Positions 3 to 15,385 of a stretch of 19,086 nucleotides of DNA are shown piece by piece. The position numbers and the translations under genes are program-made. The notes below the pieces were generated by a model, which made no database searches, was not told the DNA's origin, and was given only the letters and a program-made list of their open reading frames with translations. Origin of the DNA: Nitrospinota bacterium. GTDB lineage: Bacteria; UBA8248. The stretch is taken from positions 1-19,086 of the forward strand of contig JAYGFR010000022.1 in assembly GCA_046581755.1 (NCBI GenBank), in the 5' to 3' direction. How positions within the stretch are numbered: position 1 is the stretch's first letter; each line of letters starts with the position of its first letter.

Positions 3-386
3 CTCGTCCTGCTGATCATATTCATGGTTACGGCCCCGATGCTCGAGCAGCACCGGAGCCAGGTCAACGTGGACCTGCCCGTCGCCGCCGCCGCTCCCTC
101 GACGACCGCCGAGGATGCCGTTGTCATCACGGTGGACATCAACCAAGACCTTTTTGTCAACGACCGCCCGGTCCTGCTGTCGGAGCTCGGCGTGAAGCTG
201 GCAACTTTGTTCAAAAGCCGGGCGCGGAAAGAGATTTTCCTGCGCGCCGATCGGGCGGTTCCCTACGGGATTGTGGTGAAGACGATGGCCGTCGTCCGGA
301 AGGCCGGAATCACCCGCCTGAACATGGTGACGGACGCTCTTGAGCGCCGGGGCGGGAAATCCCGCCGCCGCCGGCGCGGCCGCTGA
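3..386 (+). CDS. tolR: TolR/ExbD-family protein, 5'-truncated by the window edge
   Basis: The frame is open from position 3 and reads LVLLIIFMVTAP (TolR/ExbD TM motif), then VDLP and LRADRAVPYGIVVKTM. It lies directly upstream of tolA-tolB-pal. The ATG at 24 is internal to the TM segment. Confidence 0.93.
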   Translation, partial: LVLLIIFMVTAPMLEQHRSQVNVDLPVAAAAPSTTAEDAVVITVDINQDLFVNDRPVLLSELGVKLATLFKSRARKEIFLRADRAVPYGIVVKTMAVVRKAGITRLNMVTDALERRGGKSRRRRRGR

Positions 387-401
387 GACAGGATACCTCC
401 C

Positions 402-1502
402 ATGGCAAAGCGTCCACTCGCCCGTTTCCGGGAGGGAGACCCTGGCGGGAGCGCCCAGCTTGGGTTGCGGGGCGGCGCCTCGCATTTCGAGGGCGCGAGC
501 TCCCTGCTCGGCGACCGGAGGTTCCGGTGGGCTTGGTGCATCTCTATCGCTTTGCACGTCGTGTTGTTTGCGGCGGTGGCGTGGTCGCCTTCGTCCGCGA
601 ACTACCGTTTCTACGGGAGCGGGACGGCGGTCAGTCTGGTCGGGGCGGATCAGATTCCCGGCGGCTCGGCGCGCGGAAAATCGGGCGACCGGATCGAAGA
701 TTTCCAATTGCCGCCCATATCCGGCGGCCCAAAAGCGAGAAAGATAGAGGCCGAACCGGATCGGAAAAAACCGAAAAAGAAAATTCGGACCGATAAAAAA
801 CGGAAGAAAAAAAAGGCTATCCGTAAAAAGAAAAGAAAAAAGAAGAGAAGGTCGGTCCGCAGAAAAAAGAAAAAACGGGTCCGGAAGCTTTCCTTAAAAA
901 AGAAAAAACGGAAAAAGAAGCTCACCAAAAGGCAGTTGGCAAGGCGCAGGAAACTCAAAAGACGTAGGGACCGCTTGAAGCGGTGGCGAAGGCGCCAAAA
1001 AAGAAAATCGAAGAACGGGTCTCCGCTCGCTGCCAGAAGAACCCGGCCGGCTCCCGATCGGGCGCCTTTGGACAGCGGGGAATTACTGGCGAGAAATGCG
1101 GTTGGCGAACGCCCAAAACCCAGGGCGGACTATCCCGGCGAGGGGGGCGGCGACGGCCAGGGAGGCGGCAGCCTTGGCGGGGGCAGCGGCGGCGTCGCTC
1201 GCAGGGATATCGAGCGATACTATGGCCTTCTCGCGGACCGCGTGAGAAGAAACTGGTCGATTCCAAGGAGCCTGGCCGACATAAAGAGCCTCAAGACCGA
1301 GGTCATCTTCGATGTGTCCCGGTTGGGCAAGATACGCGGGCTGCGAATCGAGAAATCCAGCGGCAACCGGATTTACGACGACGCGGTGCTCCGCGCGGTG
1401 GCGCGGTCCGCGAATCCGTCCCTGCCGCCTCCGCCCAATACGGTGAAAGAAAAATGGCTCCCTTTGGGTTTCCGTTTTTGCGGGCAGACCTTTTGCCGGT
1501 AA
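402..1502 (+). CDS. tolA: TolA (TonB-family energy transducer) with a polybasic central linker
   Basis: Single TM with SxxLH motif (SIALHVVLF) and a C-terminal TonB_C/TolA-III-like domain (YYGLLADRVRRNW...KSSGNRIYDDAVLRAV...LPPPP). Position between tolR and tolB. Confidence 0.88.
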   Translation: MAKRPLARFREGDPGGSAQLGLRGGASHFEGASSLLGDRRFRWAWCISIALHVVLFAAVAWSPSSANYRFYGSGTAVSLVGADQIPGGSARGKSGDRIEDFQLPPISGGPKARKIEAEPDRKKPKKKIRTDKKRKKKKAIRKKKRKKKRRSVRRKKKKRVRKLSLKKKKRKKKLTKRQLARRRKLKRRRDRLKRWRRRQKRKSKNGSPLAARRTRPAPDRAPLDSGELLARNAVGERPKPRADYPGEGGGDGQGGGSLGGGSGGVARRDIERYYGLLADRVRRNWSIPRSLADIKSLKTEVIFDVSRLGKIRGLRIEKSSGNRIYDDAVLRAVARSANPSLPPPPNTVKEKWLPLGFRFCGQTFCR

Positions 1503-1515
1503 CAGGAAATTTTGT

Positions 1516-2883
1516 ATGACCAAATATTGTTCTGGCGGCGGATCCTCCTGCCGCCTCGGAAGGGTTTTGATGGCCGGGCTCCTTGCCGCCGGGGTTTCGG
1601 CGCCGGGCGTCCCGGGCGGGTCCGCCGAAGGAGCCGCCAACGAGCGGGTTTTCATCGACATTTACTCCCCCAACGTGAGAAAAATCCGGCTCGCCATCCC
1701 CGAGTTGCGCCCATTGGCGGGCGGCCGCAAGCCGCTTGGCCTTCGGATTGCCAAGGTCATCGAATCTGATCTCCGGCGGAGCGGGCTGTTTTTCGTCAGG
1801 GATCGGAAAGGATTTCTGGAAAATCCACTCACGGCCGGAATCCGCAAAAAAGATCAGAACTTTCGGGAATGGCTGAATGTCATCAAGGCCGAGGGGCTGG
1901 TGAAGGGCGGCTACCGGATTTTTGGCGACTCGATCGAAGTCGAAATGTATCTCTACGACACCGCGCGCGGGGTGCAGGAGCTCGGGAAAAGATACCGCTA
2001 TCCCGCTTCCAACTGGCGGCTGCTCGCCCATCGGTTCGCCAATGCGGCGCTCGAGCGGTTTACCGGAGAAAAGGGGGTTTTCGATACCCAGCTCGCTTTT
2101 GTGTCGCGCCGATCGAACAAGCATCGGGGCGAGATCTATATCATGGACTGGGATGGCGCCTCCCTCCGCCGCGTAACCCGGAACGGGCAGGGAAACAACG
2201 CCCCCGCCTGGTCGCCCAACGGCAAATGGCTGGCCTACTCTTCGTTTAAATCCAGAACGCCGGGCGTGTTTATCCTCCCCACGAACGGGGGAAGGGAGTT
2301 TCGGGTCAGCTCCAGGCGCTTCCAGGCCATCGGGGGGAGTTTTTCACCGGACAGCCGGTATTTCGCCTTTGCCCAGCTGACGGGCAGGAATTACGAAATC
2401 TACCTGTACGATATGTTCAGCCGGGTGAAAAAACGCCTCACCCGGAATTTCGGCGTTGATGTTTCGCCGGCCTTTTCTCCGGACGGGAAAAAAATCGTAT
2501 TTTCATCCGGGCGCTCCGGCACCCCCCAGATATATGTGATGAATACGAATGGCGCCGGCGTTAGGCGCATTACACGCCGGGGGACCTATAATACCGAGCC
2601 GGAATGGAGCCCCCGGGGGGATCGGATCGCATTTACGGGCCGGGTGACGGATGGGTCCTCCATCGATATCGTCACCGTGAACCCCGACGGGAGCGATTTG
2701 CGCCGCCTGACGGGGGGGCAGCGCCGGAATGAATCTCCCACATGGTCCCCGGATGGGAGAAATATTGCATTTTCCTCGGATCGCTCCGGGCGCAAATATG
2801 TTTACGTGATGACCTTGGCGGGTACCCAGTTGATGCGCCTGAAGCCCGGACAGGGGCCTTCCTGGTCCCCCGCCCTGCCGTAA
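1516..2883 (+). CDS. tolB: Tol-Pal beta-propeller protein TolB
   Basis: N-terminal IESDLRRSGLF, AHRFAN...FTGEKGVFDTQLAFVS, and repeated PD40 motifs (PAWSPNG, PAFSPDG, PEWSPRG, PTWSPDG). AGGA precedes the ATG at 1516; 1570 is an alternative start. Confidence 0.96.
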   Translation: MTKYCSGGGSSCRLGRVLMAGLLAAGVSAPGVPGGSAEGAANERVFIDIYSPNVRKIRLAIPELRPLAGGRKPLGLRIAKVIESDLRRSGLFFVRDRKGFLENPLTAGIRKKDQNFREWLNVIKAEGLVKGGYRIFGDSIEVEMYLYDTARGVQELGKRYRYPASNWRLLAHRFANAALERFTGEKGVFDTQLAFVSRRSNKHRGEIYIMDWDGASLRRVTRNGQGNNAPAWSPNGKWLAYSSFKSRTPGVFILPTNGGREFRVSSRRFQAIGGSFSPDSRYFAFAQLTGRNYEIYLYDMFSRVKKRLTRNFGVDVSPAFSPDGKKIVFSSGRSGTPQIYVMNTNGAGVRRITRRGTYNTEPEWSPRGDRIAFTGRVTDGSSIDIVTVNPDGSDLRRLTGGQRRNESPTWSPDGRNIAFSSDRSGRKYVYVMTLAGTQLMRLKPGQGPSWSPALP

Positions 2884-3082: not shown

Positions 3083-3673
3083 ATGTTCGCGACGGGATAT
3101 GCCAAGCATTTCAAATTCGCTGTTGTAGGTGGAGTCTTGTTGCTTGCGGCCGGATGTGCAGAGCAGACGGTAAAATCCGGCGAGGCGGTAAATACGTATA
3201 TGCCGAATTTGAAAAAGTCATCGTCAAAGTCGGCACCTCGCAAAGCCATGAGCGAAGGGAGCATGACGGAGTCGGATCGCAGGCGCAAAAGAGCTTCTTT
3301 TAAAAGAACGCTGAGTGAATTTGAAAGCGATCTCGTATATTTCGATTTTGATTTGTCGGAAATCAGGCCGGACATGCGCTCCGGGCTGGACCGCAAGGCG
3401 CAGTTCCTGCTCGAATTCCCGACCCTTCGCACCCAGATCGAAGGGCATTGCGACGAACGGGGCACGGCGGAATACAACGTGGCCCTGGGTCACCGGCGCG
3501 CCCAGACAACCAAGGATTATCTGGTATCGCTGGGCGTCTCCGCATCGCGAATCGATACTGTGAGTTATGGCGAAGAGCGTCCGGCCGATGCGAGAAGTCA
3601 CGAACTGGCGTGGGTCAAAAACCGCCGGGCGAAGTTCAACGTCATTGGCGGTGTTCCCGCGGGAATGAATTAA
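3083..3673 (+). CDS. pal: Peptidoglycan-associated lipoprotein Pal
   Basis: GAGGAGG RBS, lipobox LAAG-C, and OmpA-like motifs VYFDFD and IEGHCDERGTAEYNVALGHRRA...VSYGEERP...NRRA. Confidence 0.97.
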   Translation: MFATGYAKHFKFAVVGGVLLLAAGCAEQTVKSGEAVNTYMPNLKKSSSKSAPRKAMSEGSMTESDRRRKRASFKRTLSEFESDLVYFDFDLSEIRPDMRSGLDRKAQFLLEFPTLRTQIEGHCDERGTAEYNVALGHRRAQTTKDYLVSLGVSASRIDTVSYGEERPADARSHELAWVKNRRAKFNVIGGVPAGMN

Positions 3674-3700
3674 GGATCTTATTTGTCGCGACCCAAAGGA

Positions 3701-3733
3701 TTCTCCGGCGGTGATCCGCCGGGGAGTTTTTTT
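3701..3733 (+). terminator. Intrinsic terminator/attenuator after pal
   Basis: 11-bp stem TTCTCCGGCGG / CCGCCGGGGAG (2 G-U pairs) with a TGAT loop, followed by T7 (3727-3733). Confidence 0.7.
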
Positions 3734-3736
3734 CTT

Positions 3737-6915
<3,179 letters not shown>

Positions 6916-13039: not shown

Positions 13040-13882
13040 GTGCCCCCAGAGATTGTTTTCGCCCTGATTTCCATGGGATGCCTGGGAACGAGCGATTTTC
13101 TCTATAAATGGGGTCAGCGCTGGGATCTGCGGGGCGGCCCGTTCATGTTGCTCCAAAACTTCGCCTATATGCCCACCGCCTTCGCGCTTACCTTTATCCG
13201 CTCGGAACTCGCTTGGAGCCCCGGCCTGTGGTTGGGCCTGCTGAACGGCGCACTCGCCTTCACGGCGTTTCTTTTCATCCTCCTGGCGATGCGCCGGGGG
13301 GAGGCCATTTCGCTGATCCCCATCGTCCGCCTGAACTTTGCGATAACGGCCCTGCTGACGATCGCCTTTATCGGCGAGGAGGTGAACCCCCTCAAGGGCA
13401 TCGCCCTCTTCCTGGCGGGAGCGGCCGTTCTCTCGGGGGGAGTCGGCGTCATCGCGGGCGGGCGGGATCGCCGCTCCCTGGCGCTCGCTGCCGGCGCGAT
13501 GTGCCTGTTCGGGTTCATCGGGCTGTTTATCAAGCTCGGCCTGGCGATGGGGGCGAATCCGGCGGCCATGACTCTCGCTCAGAGCGTGGGCGTATTTTGC
13601 ATGGCGCTCCCCTATGCCGTTTTCTCGGGAGACTCCATGCCCCGGCGGGGCGGCGCTCTTTGGGTTCCCCTCGCCTGTGGAATATTGACCTCATCCAGCT
13701 ACGTTTCGCTTTCGGTGGGTTTCACCCACGGAGACGCGGTCGTGATCGCGCCCATCGCTCAACTCAGTTTCGTTCTCACGGGCCTTTTGGCCATCGTTTT
13801 TCTCGGGGAGCGCCTCTCCACCCGGAGGGCCCTCGGGGTGGCCTGCGCGGTTTTTTCGATCCTGATATTCGCAGCGGCCTAG
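13040..13882 (+). CDS. EamA/DMT-family transporter
   Basis: About 10 hydrophobic segments in two repeats ending in FIGEE and FLGERL, with GEAISLIPI / GDAVVIAPI motifs. GGAGG precedes the GTG at 13040. Confidence 0.9.
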   Translation: MPPEIVFALISMGCLGTSDFLYKWGQRWDLRGGPFMLLQNFAYMPTAFALTFIRSELAWSPGLWLGLLNGALAFTAFLFILLAMRRGEAISLIPIVRLNFAITALLTIAFIGEEVNPLKGIALFLAGAAVLSGGVGVIAGGRDRRSLALAAGAMCLFGFIGLFIKLGLAMGANPAAMTLAQSVGVFCMALPYAVFSGDSMPRRGGALWVPLACGILTSSSYVSLSVGFTHGDAVVIAPIAQLSFVLTGLLAIVFLGERLSTRRALGVACAVFSILIFAAA

Positions 13883-13890
13883 CTGCGCGG

Positions 13891-13913
13891 TCCGGGCGTG
13901 TTCGCCGCCCGGA
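13891..13913. terminator. GC-rich hairpin immediately after the EamA stop (no U-tract)
   Basis: Perfect 8-bp stem TCCGGGCG / CGCCCGGA with a 7-nt loop. Confidence 0.35.
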
Positions 13914-13938
13914 GCGAGGGATTGAGAGGGCTTTTGGA

Positions 13939-14114
13939 TCCGAAACGAATCTCCGCGCATTTCCGGTTGCGGTCATTCCATCCTTTGGATCTATGTTTAC
14001 CGCGCTGGCGGGAGATTCCGCCGGGAGGGGGCGGGCTGCCCCCGGAGGAAACCGGTATGCGGAGTTTGAATGGAAAAATAAACCGCAATTTTTATGGAGG
14101 TGGTCGGTTTCGGA
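13939..14114 (+). ncRNA. Candidate structured RNA of unknown family
   Basis: Five nested complementary segments plus two apical hairpins in the gap between convergent genes. G-U pairs favour the + strand. Confidence 0.25.
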
Positions 14115-14206
14115 ATATTTCGGGAGTTTGCGGGTGAACTTCGATTTGGGGTTTCTCGGGTGGTGGATTTGCTCGAGGGGTGGTTTGGAGGTCAAGCCCG
14201 GCGCGG

Positions 14207-15385
14207 TTAGATGATGCCCTCGCTCCGCAGCTCGCCCGCCCGGTCCGGTCCGATGCCGATCCACGAGGAGAGGATTTCGTCGGTGTGCGCTCCGAGCGGG
14301 GGGCCTGTCCAGCGGATATCGAGCGGGGTTTTCGACATGCGCGGGGTGACGTTTTGCATGGGGACTTCGCCGAAATCGGGATCGGGAATGTTCTTGACGA
14401 GCTCCCGCGCCTGGAAATGGGGGTCCGCCAGGATGTCCTCGATGTCGTAGACGGGCATGGCGGTGACGCCTCCCTCGGTGAAGCGCCGCATGTTCTCCTC
14501 GCAGGAGCGCGTGCGGATTTCGCCGGCCACAATTTCGTCGAGCGCCGGGTTGTTGGCCACGCGGGCGTTGTTGCTCTCGAAGCGGGGATTGGGGATGAGG
14601 TCGCTCCGGTCCAGGCATATGGCCAGGCGCTCGAACATGGGCTGGGTCGAGGCGGAAATGGCGATCCAGCGGCCATCCTTCGTCGGGTAGCAGTTCCGGG
14701 GCGAGGAGTTTTCGGAGAGGTTTCCGGTGCGCCCGTATTTTTTCCCGCTCAGGGCGAACTCGGCGGCATAGGGGCCGATGATGGTGAACAGGGGCTCGTA
14801 GAGGGCCAGATCGATGACCTGGCCCTTTCCGCCCCCCAGCGCGTCCCGGTGGTAGAGGGCGAACATGGTGGAGGAGACCCCGTACAGGCCCGCCGTCATG
14901 TCGGCGATCGGAATTGGCGGGAGGAGGGGCGGCGAATCGGGAAACCCATTGATGGCGCTGAAGCCCGAGGCCGCCTCGACTAGGGTTCCGAAGCCGGGCC
15001 GATCCCGGTAGGGGCCGCCCTGTCCCCAGCCGGAGATGCGCACGATGACCAGACGGGGGTTGATCTCATGAAGTTCTTCGGGCGAGAGGCCCCAGGACTC
15101 GAGTTTCCCGGGGAAGAAATTCTCGGCCAGCACGTCGGCCTTCGAGGCCAGTTCCTTCAAAATCTCCTGCCCGGCGGGCCGGTTCAGGGCCAGCGTCATC
15201 GATTTTTTCCCGCGCCCGTACACCTTCCACCACGAGGGCTTCCAGGCGCGGAGGGTGTCTCCCCGCCCGGGGACCTCGACTTTCACCACCTCGGCTCCGG
15301 CGTCGGCGAGGAGCATCCCGTAGAAGCCGCCGACGATGAGCCGGGTCAGATCGAGCACCTTTACGCCTTCGAGCGGCGCCGCCAT
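14207..15385 (-). CDS. Family III (CaiB/BaiF) CoA-transferase, 392 aa
   Basis: PLEGVKVLDLT, GAEVVKVE.PGRGD, RGKKS, ADVLAENF.PG, ISGWGQGGPYRDRPG, catalytic Asp in IADMTAG, and PPLGAHTDEIL. AGGGGAG RBS before the ATG at 15385. Confidence 0.95.
   Translation of the reverse strand: MAAPLEGVKVLDLTRLIVGGFYGMLLADAGAEVVKVEVPGRGDTLRAWKPSWWKVYGRGKKSMTLALNRPAGQEILKELASKADVLAENFFPGKLESWGLSPEELHEINPRLVIVRISGWGQGGPYRDRPGFGTLVEAASGFSAINGFPDSPPLLPPIPIADMTAGLYGVSSTMFALYHRDALGGGKGQVIDLALYEPLFTIIGPYAAEFALSGKKYGRTGNLSENSSPRNCYPTKDGRWIAISASTQPMFERLAICLDRSDLIPNPRFESNNARVANNPALDEIVAGEIRTRSCEENMRRFTEGGVTAMPVYDIEDILADPHFQARELVKNIPDPDFGEVPMQNVTPRMSKTPLDIRWTGPPLGAHTDEILSSWIGIGPDRAGELRSEGII

Follow-up and report, generated by a model that had tools for sequence, protein, structure and literature searches.

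A Polycationic Domain II in the TolA Protein of a Nitrospinota Bacterium and Its Family

Introduction

The stretch of DNA analysed here (the window, 19,086 nucleotides of contig JAYGFR010000022.1 in the Nitrospinota assembly GCA_046581755.1) carries at positions 402-1502 the gene for TolA, whose middle part, domain II, serves as the linker between the TolQR motor and TolB-Pal. In this protein domain II has been found to be polycationic: 61 of the 84 residues 121-204 (73%) are Lys or Arg, accompanied by 2 Asp, no Glu, 2 Ala and 1 Pro, and the net charge is +59. An earlier note on the window, made from its letters alone, had given these coordinates and counts, and the translation reproduces them exactly. 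We have observed that the polycationic domain II is a family-wide trait and is not confined to the window genome. It is a variant not described before within the known TolA family, as no description of a polybasic TolA has been found in the literature, in a coverage that lacks most subscription journals. With moderate confidence, we regard the linker as the extreme of a lineage-wide cationic periplasm and exported proteome, and as still being the usual spacer between motor and TolB-Pal. On this reading the charge is no device peculiar to TolA, because TolB, Pal, CpoB, TolR, the protease DegP and many exported proteins are basic too; the same finding leaves the proposal of the earlier note, that the linker represents a TolA-specific new way of force transmission, unsupported in that form.

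Reality of the Polybasic Reading Frame

The 4.22-Mb genome contains 18,535 frames between stops with a length of 100 amino acids (aa) or more, and of all these the core shows the highest net charge per 84 aa; the runners-up (+50 and +44) are both other exported proteins. Its coding sequence forms the A-rich island that the earlier note had pointed out and that is real, with 48.8% A and 42% G+C at 762-1013 compared with 18.7% A in the window and 17.8% in the remaining tolA. Equally, the frame is intact from the transmembrane (TM) helix to the C-terminal domain, as had been claimed, with no stop in 366 codons and S48-x3-H52 located within the predicted TM helix. Inside the core there are 12 runs of A5-A8, among them an A8 run at 807-814, and as runs of up to eight bases are error-prone and the +2 frame is Glu/Lys-rich, one may suspect a frameshifted or mis-assembled stretch that masks an ordinary Glu/Lys linker. 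We give next to no credence to such an artefact. A frame-shift reading is excluded by the alternative frames of 762-1013, which are both closed by stops (two in +1, three in +2), and the independent sequence data argue in the same direction. The gene has been matched wholly or partly by 20 public sequencing runs, 14 of them with at least half of the sampled words, and in each of three studies one run (X1, marine; X4, hydrothermal-vent; X5, seawater metagenome) has provided contigs that span 402-1502 or 418-1502 free of gaps, so that the paired indels considered in the earlier note have not been seen. These contigs differ from tolA by 5-8 substitutions each, with seven of the 11 variant positions listed being third codon positions, and the sole variant within 762-1013 is synonymous (1004 A>G, AGA>AGG). 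Cluster P0002, which comes from another source and is 93% identical, shows only in-frame differences in the linker, and the same frame is kept in more than 50 orthologous clusters. The polybasic frame is genuine and no artefact. In addition, by word matching, six metatranscriptome runs contain 17-40% of the tolA sampled words.

Conservation of the Linker Charge in the Family

The search of 41 related genomes has yielded a TolA match in 35 of them, including 22 of the 24 family members besides the window genome. Domain II, taken as the stretch from the KSGD motif to the Gly-rich motif, has been scored in 20 of the 23 family loci, and these 20 have an open frame across the linker; two of the remaining three are open with a motif variant outside the search pattern, and one contains a stop. 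The latter belongs to the AT-rich relative G013 of genus g4 (G013:C6:156308-157348, locus L022), where a TAG lies within the linker and the gene is either split or mis-sequenced.

In the five genomes of the window genus (g1), domain II carries net charges of +61, +58, +59, +65 and +49, so that the close relatives, for which the earlier note had considered ordinary linkers, have turned out to be polybasic too. Comparable values have been found in g4 (+61 and +59, at a locus GC of only 0.33-0.34), g7 (+49 and +52), g8 (+42 to +49, GC up to 0.68), g2 (+42) and g6 (+36), while g3 reaches +21, g9 +7 to +13 (locus GC 0.69) and g5 +12 in its best 84-aa window. Most of the nine Nitrospinaceae-like genera sampled hence have a domain II of net +36 to +65, and this polybasic linker is conserved across a locus GC of 33-68%, with Asp and Glu reduced to 3-15% of domain II, whereas the low-charge genera g5 and g9 keep the conserved linker motif as an ER/K-type sequence in which Glu, Arg and Lys are balanced. 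The same charge spread has been observed for 61 cluster representatives from a large protein collection. The window TolA has the most extreme 84-aa window seen, whereas for the entire domain II several proteins, the window TolA among them, reach about +60. In a midpoint-rooted tree of the C-terminal domain, the backbone is poorly resolved, and the best windows of the class-level outgroups lie at +16 to +31, which fits a basic ancestral linker that would have been lowered in g9 and g5 and driven furthest in the window genus.

A Basic Exported Proteome

All five Tol-Pal proteins encoded in the window are basic, with isoelectric points (pI) of 11.2 for the partial TolR, 11.7 for TolA, 10.6 for TolB, 9.5 for Pal and 9.6 for CpoB, and an acidic partner within Tol-Pal has been rejected accordingly. 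The cytoplasmic window neighbours have a pI of 4.7-6.9 (LigA 6.3, nucleotidyl transferase 5.1, CBS-domain transporters 4.7-4.9). In Escherichia coli the net charges are 0 for TolB, -1 for Pal, -2 for TolR and +2 for CpoB (-2 to +10 for the Tol-Pal counterparts overall), in contrast to the +35, +7, +10 (partial TolR) and +9 determined here. Among the relatives, the net charge of TolB per 100 aligned residues amounts to 5.8-8.9 in the genera with polybasic TolA, 4.5-4.6 in g2 and g3, 1.6-2.6 in g5 and g9 and 0.7-4.1 in the class-level outgroups, and DegP-type protease orthologs carry +16 to +37 in g1, g2 and g7 compared with +5 to +8 in g5, g9 and an outgroup. The charges of TolB (Spearman 0.73, n=19) and DegP (rho 0.62, n=11) follow that of the TolA linker, in kin genomes and thus as descriptive values only.

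These shifts bear on the question of whether the composition of the linker has any meaning at all. Domain II could merely be long and hydrophilic, with A-rich codon runs growing by replication slippage, and indeed the core is of low complexity and rich in A runs, AAA accounts for 23 of its 36 Lys codons (13 AAG) compared with 96 of 188 (92 AAG) in 14 other window genes, and many in-frame indels separate the orthologs, the TAG inside the G013 linker adding to this picture. We nevertheless consider such neutral drift unlikely. The core charge is not a mutational by-product, because 14 of the 25 Arg codons are CGN, the charge persists across a locus GC of 33-68% with Asp and Glu being depleted, and no such drift has taken place in the genome's own TonB paralogues. 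Moreover, globular TolB and DegP have shifted likewise in the same genera, which is beyond the reach of slippage.

The whole-genome charge survey has been based on a crude codon-score caller of open reading frames (ORFs) and a crude home-made signal-peptide rule, at a stricter score; samples other than the window genome (G000) comprised about 250-400 kb each, and that of E. coli K-12 200 kb (Table 1). In the window genome the median net charge per 100 aa is about +3.8 to +4.4 in the predicted exported soluble proteins and -2.1 to -2.4 in the cytoplasmic class (n=2063 at the stricter score), and the cytoplasmic medians of all samples lie between -1.3 and -3.7. The E. coli and g9 controls, treated identically, lack such a shift of the exported class. 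The excess derives from more Lys (6.0% vs 3.7%) and fewer Asp/Glu (10.7% vs 13.6%), with Arg being equal. Subsamples of n=30 from the window genome have medians of 0.56-5.90 (95% range), which leaves the window genome distinct from g9, g8 and E. coli but not from G032 and G004. To check the rule, 20 random class members have been run against Pfam: five are classic periplasmic proteins (a SurA/PpiD-type peptidyl-prolyl isomerase, a DegP-type protease, Peripla_BP_6, SBP_bac_5 and NMT1_3; +6.0 to +10.3 per 100 aa), four others are probably exported (+2.0 to +9.1), and seven cytoplasmic enzymes have been miscalled as exported (-4.7 to 0.0); the remainder comprises a Band_7 protein (+1.7) and three proteins without family assignment (0.0, +4.6, +7.0). 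Noisy as the rule is, its miscalls never exceed 0, and the exported proteins proper are, if anything, more basic than the medians. For marine microbes, the accessible part of PMC6706942 describes proteomes that are more acidic than those of freshwater relatives, most sharply for secreted proteins; the basic exported bias of the window genome is opposite to this published trend.

Table 1. Net charge of the signal-peptide class in the genome samples
Sample	Proteins (n)	Median net charge per 100 aa	Share above +3
G000 (window genome)	303	+3.8	54%
G004 (same genus)	20	+2.3	40%
G024 (g8)	25	0.0	36%
G032 (outgroup)	28	+1.7	32%
G010 (g7)	25	+0.5	20%
G012 (g9)	21	0.0	10%
E. coli K-12 (200 kb)	25	-1.2	8%

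Further strongly basic sequences have been noticed in the same genome. A small protein without Pfam family but with a signal-peptide-like N-terminus (G000:C136:9498-10094, minus strand; locus L037:1999-2535, minus strand) has a C-terminal half that reaches a net charge of +50 in 84 aa, with KGRK/RKVRK-type repeats. A protein of 621 aa (G000:C23:37661-39523, plus strand; locus L036:1162-3024) begins like a signal peptide and contains TPR repeats as well as a pair of LysM domains, with poly-Arg/Lys tracts between and behind the latter (+44 in 84 aa); in its orthologs the tracts reach +32 and +35 in the same genus and +25 in g6, and they are absent in an outgroup (+9). Lys/Ala-rich, histone-H1-like tails with KKAAKKKIAKK repeats occur in G000:C136:18-860 (minus strand) and G000:C356:12392-13195 (plus strand), C-terminally in one protein and N-terminally in the other, the latter resembling, by eye, a 2Fe-2S ferredoxin-type subunit. 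Within the window, a 368-aa ORF at 13108-14214 (plus strand) contains 60 Arg and 4 Lys (pI 11.7) and is without Pfam match; as it shares its positions with further long ORFs, it may not be a gene but a frame in GC-rich DNA that is not translated.

Identity as TolA and the Tol-Pal Locus

The product of 402-1502 is TolA, as the earlier note had also concluded, to judge by its TonB_2 domain, the TolA family model and the gene order tolR-tolA-tolB-pal-cpoB (Table 2). The model TIGR02794 has been passed barely (cut-off 59.45 bits), the gamma-proteobacterial TolA model NF007065 scores far under its cut-off (19.8 vs 213), and Pfam TonB_C stays under as well (20.2 vs 24.6). In Foldseek, the C-terminal domain matches the TonB-CTD structure 6sly and the TolAIII structures 6s3w, 2x9a_B and 1lr0 with a probability of 1.0 and a template-modelling score (target) of 0.5-0.6, while a profile search against PDB sequences has returned weak TolA/TonB matches only (E 0.006), together with spurious TAF4 matches on the basic region. 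An identity as TonB has been rejected in view of the single Pro in 84 residues, the TonB_C score and the tolB/pal neighbours. The contig begins within tolR, so any tolQ position falls outside it, and because TolR is truncated, the NCBIfam tolR model is its best match yet remains under cut-off. TolR ends in a basic tail, GGKSRRRRRGR, at window 345-383. Every family TolR examined ends with 2-5 Arg/Lys, and because the balanced-linker genera are included in this, the tail is at most loosely tied to the TolA charge. The relatives of the same genus include 'ODZ_NOB7a' and 'Nitrospinota bacterium ETNP2_MAG_82'.

Table 2. Genes of the Tol-Pal locus and segments of TolA, in window coordinates (pLDDT, predicted local distance difference test)
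Feature	Position	Strand	Description
tolR (ExbD/TolR family)	24..386	+	5' end cut by contig end; Pfam ExbD E 8.6e-15
tolA	402..1502	+	366 aa, stop codon included in coordinates; Pfam TonB_2 E 3.7e-16; TIGR02794 tolA_full 59.7 bits
TM helix (residues ~43-61), S48-x3-H52	528..584	+	AlphaFold2 helix 39-61, pLDDT >90
Juxtamembrane segment YRFYGSGTAVSLVGADQIPGGSARGKSGDR, residues 68-98	603..695	+	near-invariant GSGTAVxLxG...PGG...SGD in alignment A1
Polybasic core, domain II	762..1013	+	residues 121-204: 36 K, 25 R, 2 D, 0 E
Motif QLARRRKLKRRRDRLKRWRRR within linker, residues ~179-199	936..998	+	homologous to ARLKxIRERRxRxxRWR of relatives, balanced-linker ones included
Gly-rich hinge GEGGGDGQGGGS, residues 246-257	1137..1172	+	invariant in 45 sequences
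TolAIII/TonB-CTD-like domain, residues 272-359	1215..1478	+	Pfam TonB_2; confident in AlphaFold2
tolB	1516..2883	+	455 aa, net +35, pI 10.6; TIGR02800 359.4 bits vs 343
pal	3083..3673	+	196 aa, net +7, pI 9.5; TIGR02802 129.2 bits vs 125.35
cpoB/ybgF-like TPR	3683..4744	+	353 aa, net +9, pI 9.6; Pfam TPR_6 E 2.6e-15, weak YfiO match, after pal

Domain Anatomy and Predicted Structure

Conservation has been evaluated in alignment A1, which contains 45 orthologs and from which the AlphaFold2 model (mean pLDDT 69.8) has been built. Behind a basic cytoplasmic head (residues 1-42), the TM helix contains S48, L51 and H52, which are conserved in at least 90% of the orthologs. In the juxtamembrane segment, G72, S73, G74, T75, A76, V77, L79, G81, P86, G87, G88, S94, G95 and D96 are invariant in the 45 sequences. 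Residues 68-98 are likely a candidate for the motor box in the sense of PMC12204202, which, in its accessible part, denotes a predicted beta-strand in the disordered stretch behind the TM helix; in the AlphaFold2 monomer, they appear without strand and with a pLDDT below 50. Within the linker, at least 90% of the aligned sequences keep the QLARRRKLKRRRDRLKRWRRR motif residues A180, R188, R189, R191, W195 and R196. The hinge is embedded in a Pro/Ala/Gly-rich disordered spacer (residues 205-265, pLDDT below 50 for 207-265), and the protein terminates with FCGQTFCR (window 1479-1499), a C-x4-C end whose cysteines C360 and C365 are shared by 90% or more of the 45 orthologs and which likely forms a disulfide loop. 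We know of neither the invariant GEGGGDGQGGGS hinge nor the C-x4-C end as a feature of E. coli TolA.

The earlier note had suggested a prediction of structure or disorder. The core is predicted as two long helices (126-169 and 176-205, with means over blocks of 10 residues of pLDDT 90-96 for 131-160 and 181-200), and its flanks are predicted to be disordered. Given these two helices, the linker therefore likely still serves as a spacer. The hydrophobic moment of 126-169, 176-205 and 126-205, calculated at 100, 98.2, 102.9, 120 and 160 degrees, never exceeds that of shuffled sequences (z -1.9 to +0.5). An amphipathic helix, a coiled coil and a hairpin have consequently been rejected for the core, as its hydrophobic periodicity is no greater than in shuffles, and a membrane-surface helix is not indicated either.

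A stiff spacer could also be obtained in a different manner, with like-charge repulsion keeping the chain extended, as the earlier note had envisaged, in the form of a self-repelling polyelectrolyte rod that replaces the rigidity of a helix or polyproline. The absence of a hydrophobic stripe, and hence of any indicated coiled coil or hairpin, is compatible with this idea, and rigidity matters for domain II: according to the accessible part of Williams-Jones 2023 (PMC10666116), the outer membrane is not stabilised without it, and a flexible linker of Gly, Ser and Asn does not suffice. The near-identical contigs, however, come from marine, seawater and hydrothermal-vent metagenomes, and at the ionic strength of seawater (~0.6-0.7 M) textbook physics gives a Debye length of ~0.4 nm, at which the stiffening would be minimal. 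Since AlphaFold2, in addition, predicts helices, extension by self-repulsion appears doubtful, and we hold the rod to be very unlikely.

Comparison with Known TolA and TonB Proteins

E. coli TolA (b0739) is built likewise: a TM helix with Ser-x3-His at the N-terminus is followed by a long middle domain, and a Gly-rich hinge leads to the C-terminal TolAIII fold. Its gene also stands between tolR and tolB-pal-cpoB. Its domain II (48-310, 263 residues), with 104 Ala, 51 Lys and 39 Glu, a net charge of +7 and a best 84-aa window of +9, is unlike the core of the window protein. The gamma-proteobacterial type of Lys-Ala-Glu/Asp repeats is thus not matched, although a helix is predicted for the core as well. 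The earlier note had taken the Ala/Lys/Glu-rich, charge-balanced helix as the norm of domain II, which is appropriate for gamma-proteobacteria but not beyond them, as helical TolAII is described as anomalous among Tol-Pal systems in the accessible part of Williams-Jones et al. 2025 (PMC12204202). The non-proteobacterial (Gracilicute) TolA proteins treated in the same part of that source resemble the window TolA in a domain II shorter than in proteobacteria, a disordered region behind the TM helix, with a conserved motor box for which the window TolA has a candidate, and the tol-pal order; they differ in that their domain II is mostly Pro-rich or disordered.

A polycationic type of domain II is not described in the accessible texts of PMC10666116 and PMC12204202. 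KKKKK, KKRKK and RKKKR are all missing from the supplement text of the latter, as far as accessible (282,646 characters), and the 11 occurrences of KKKK there come from six proteins, with TolA/TonB sequences being printed twice and one of the six being a TonB-dependent receptor; the nearest sequence therein is a short Lys/Pro-rich TolA of Latescibacteria. Its Nitrospina gracilis entry is a different, long TolA-like protein of mixed composition, flagged as broken by the catalogue, and the Nitrospinae entry, in this accessible part, lacks a polybasic gene of the type that adjoins tolB in the examined Nitrospinaceae genomes. Among 146 further TonB_2-domain representatives (50% clusters), the best 84-aa window has a median of +9, a 95th percentile of +25 and a maximum of +42; the maximum belongs to a Nitrospinota-like protein, and an unrelated Lys/Pro-rich protein reaches +39.

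The closest comparison is provided by the balanced-linker orthologs of two family genera (e.g., L181, 'Candidatus Tectomicrobia bacterium RIFCSPLOWO2_12_FULL_69_37', and L178), which are 45-55% identical and share the candidate motor box, the ARLKxIRERRxRxxRWR motif, the Gly-rich hinge and the C-terminal domain. They differ in an ER/K-type domain II with 15-20 Glu and a net charge of +7 to +13, and their TolB and DegP are far less basic.

TonB is similar in its homologous C-terminal fold and its motor coupling, and the Lys-Pro half of the Glu-Pro/Lys-Pro linker of E. coli TonB is a basic periplasmic segment as well (PMC10666116 and PMC12204202, accessible parts). The window gene differs by its context, which is tolB-pal and not a TonB-dependent transporter. 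The window genome also encodes two TonB paralogues, C362 and C290; one has a linker of Pro/Lys/Glu tandem repeats and the other a Pro-rich, neutral linker, the latter type being found in the genome's own exbB-exbD-tonB locus. A genome-wide linker bias has been rejected on account of these Pro-rich or mixed linkers. The paralogue at G000:C362:8823-10475 (plus strand; locus L032:121-1773) is a TonB_2/TonB_C protein of 550 aa that adjoins neither tolB nor pal, and its linker consists of tandem repeats of the type EKRPKVVVKERPKVVVKKAKxAPRKVA.

Charge of the Linker and Its Possible Role

If the polybasic linker is the extreme of a generally cationic periplasm, the pressure that makes exported proteins cationic would drive its composition to the extreme, since few structural constraints would act there. 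Among crowded cationic periplasmic neighbours, a cationic linker would avoid sticking, whereas a Glu-rich linker might stick. The only groups left to attract it would then be fixed envelope anions, in the form of peptidoglycan carboxylates and the head groups of phospholipids or lipopolysaccharide, and an association with the sacculus and membrane surfaces seems plausible. Force would pass as in other TolA/TonB proteins, from the motor box through a semi-rigid domain II to the C-terminal domain engaging TolB.

The linker could, on the other hand, be a specific polyanion tether, with domain II binding peptidoglycan, anionic lipids or periplasmic glycans, as the earlier note had also proposed, and the binding being part of the transmission of force or position. 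A charge of +59 in 84 residues would be enough for multivalent binding even at high salt, and both in alignment A1 and in the family loci the charge is conserved while the linker sequence turns over. Two other exported proteins possess poly-Arg/Lys tracts, one of them between two peptidoglycan-binding LysM domains, and the latter tracts reach their highest values within the window genus (+32 to +44) and are lacking in an outgroup. However, no partner is identifiable from sequence, the same basic shift affects globular TolB, DegP and binding proteins, which need no wall binding, and in two genera the conserved motif goes together with a balanced linker, which means that the system can do without a high net charge. 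Firm attachment of the linker to the sacculus would also impede the cycling of TolA, following the model in the accessible part of PMC10666116. We therefore assign the tether a low, though not negligible, probability.

Our preference for a lineage-wide cationic exported proteome has to be weighed against several points. The ORF caller and signal-peptide rule are home-made, with about one third false positives (7/20), the control samples are small (20-28 proteins), and the subsample range of the window genome overlaps two of the six controls. The genera g7 and g8 combine polybasic TolA and basic TolB with a signal-peptide-class median near 0, so the proteome-wide shift is clear for the window genus only. 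The genomes being kin, the correlations overstate independence and come down effectively to two or three contrasts. As to structure, AlphaFold2 ignores ionic conditions and charge repulsion, and the helicity may come from the balanced-linker relatives in the alignment. Poly-Lys/Arg alone is not helical at neutral pH, and the helix prediction, as the sole structural evidence, is weak for such a sequence. A specific polyanion-binding role of the linker may act on top of the general trend. A Donnan enrichment of nitrite by a cationic periplasm has been set aside, as the potential, by estimate, would reach only a few mV in ~0.55 M chloride.

Significance

No other part of the Tol-Pal force transducer is as poorly understood as domain II. 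According to the accessible parts of the respective sources, it takes widely differing structures beyond the gamma-proteobacteria (PMC12204202), and its rigidity tunes the stabilisation of the outer membrane (PMC10666116). The family-wide linkers of +40 to +65, together with the balanced sister genera that carry the same motifs, constitute a natural comparison for the role of charge in spanning the periplasm and crossing the wall. A long polybasic segment has to be exported against the membrane potential, and if the polybasic linker is what it appears to be, it would be a natural test case for the handling of long polybasic stretches by Sec. The wider pattern of basic exported and acidic cytoplasmic proteins in a marine organism may be the more important lead, in a lineage of likely nitrite oxidisers whose energy metabolism would take place in the periplasm. 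Tentatively, and with a probability that we judge to be low, marine Nitrospinaceae may run a cationic periplasm, with a strong positive net charge on most exported proteins and on the Tol-Pal machine as a whole, in which a TolA domain II of about +60 rides on, or binds to, the anionic sacculus and membranes, and thus would act as an electrostatically guided force transducer.

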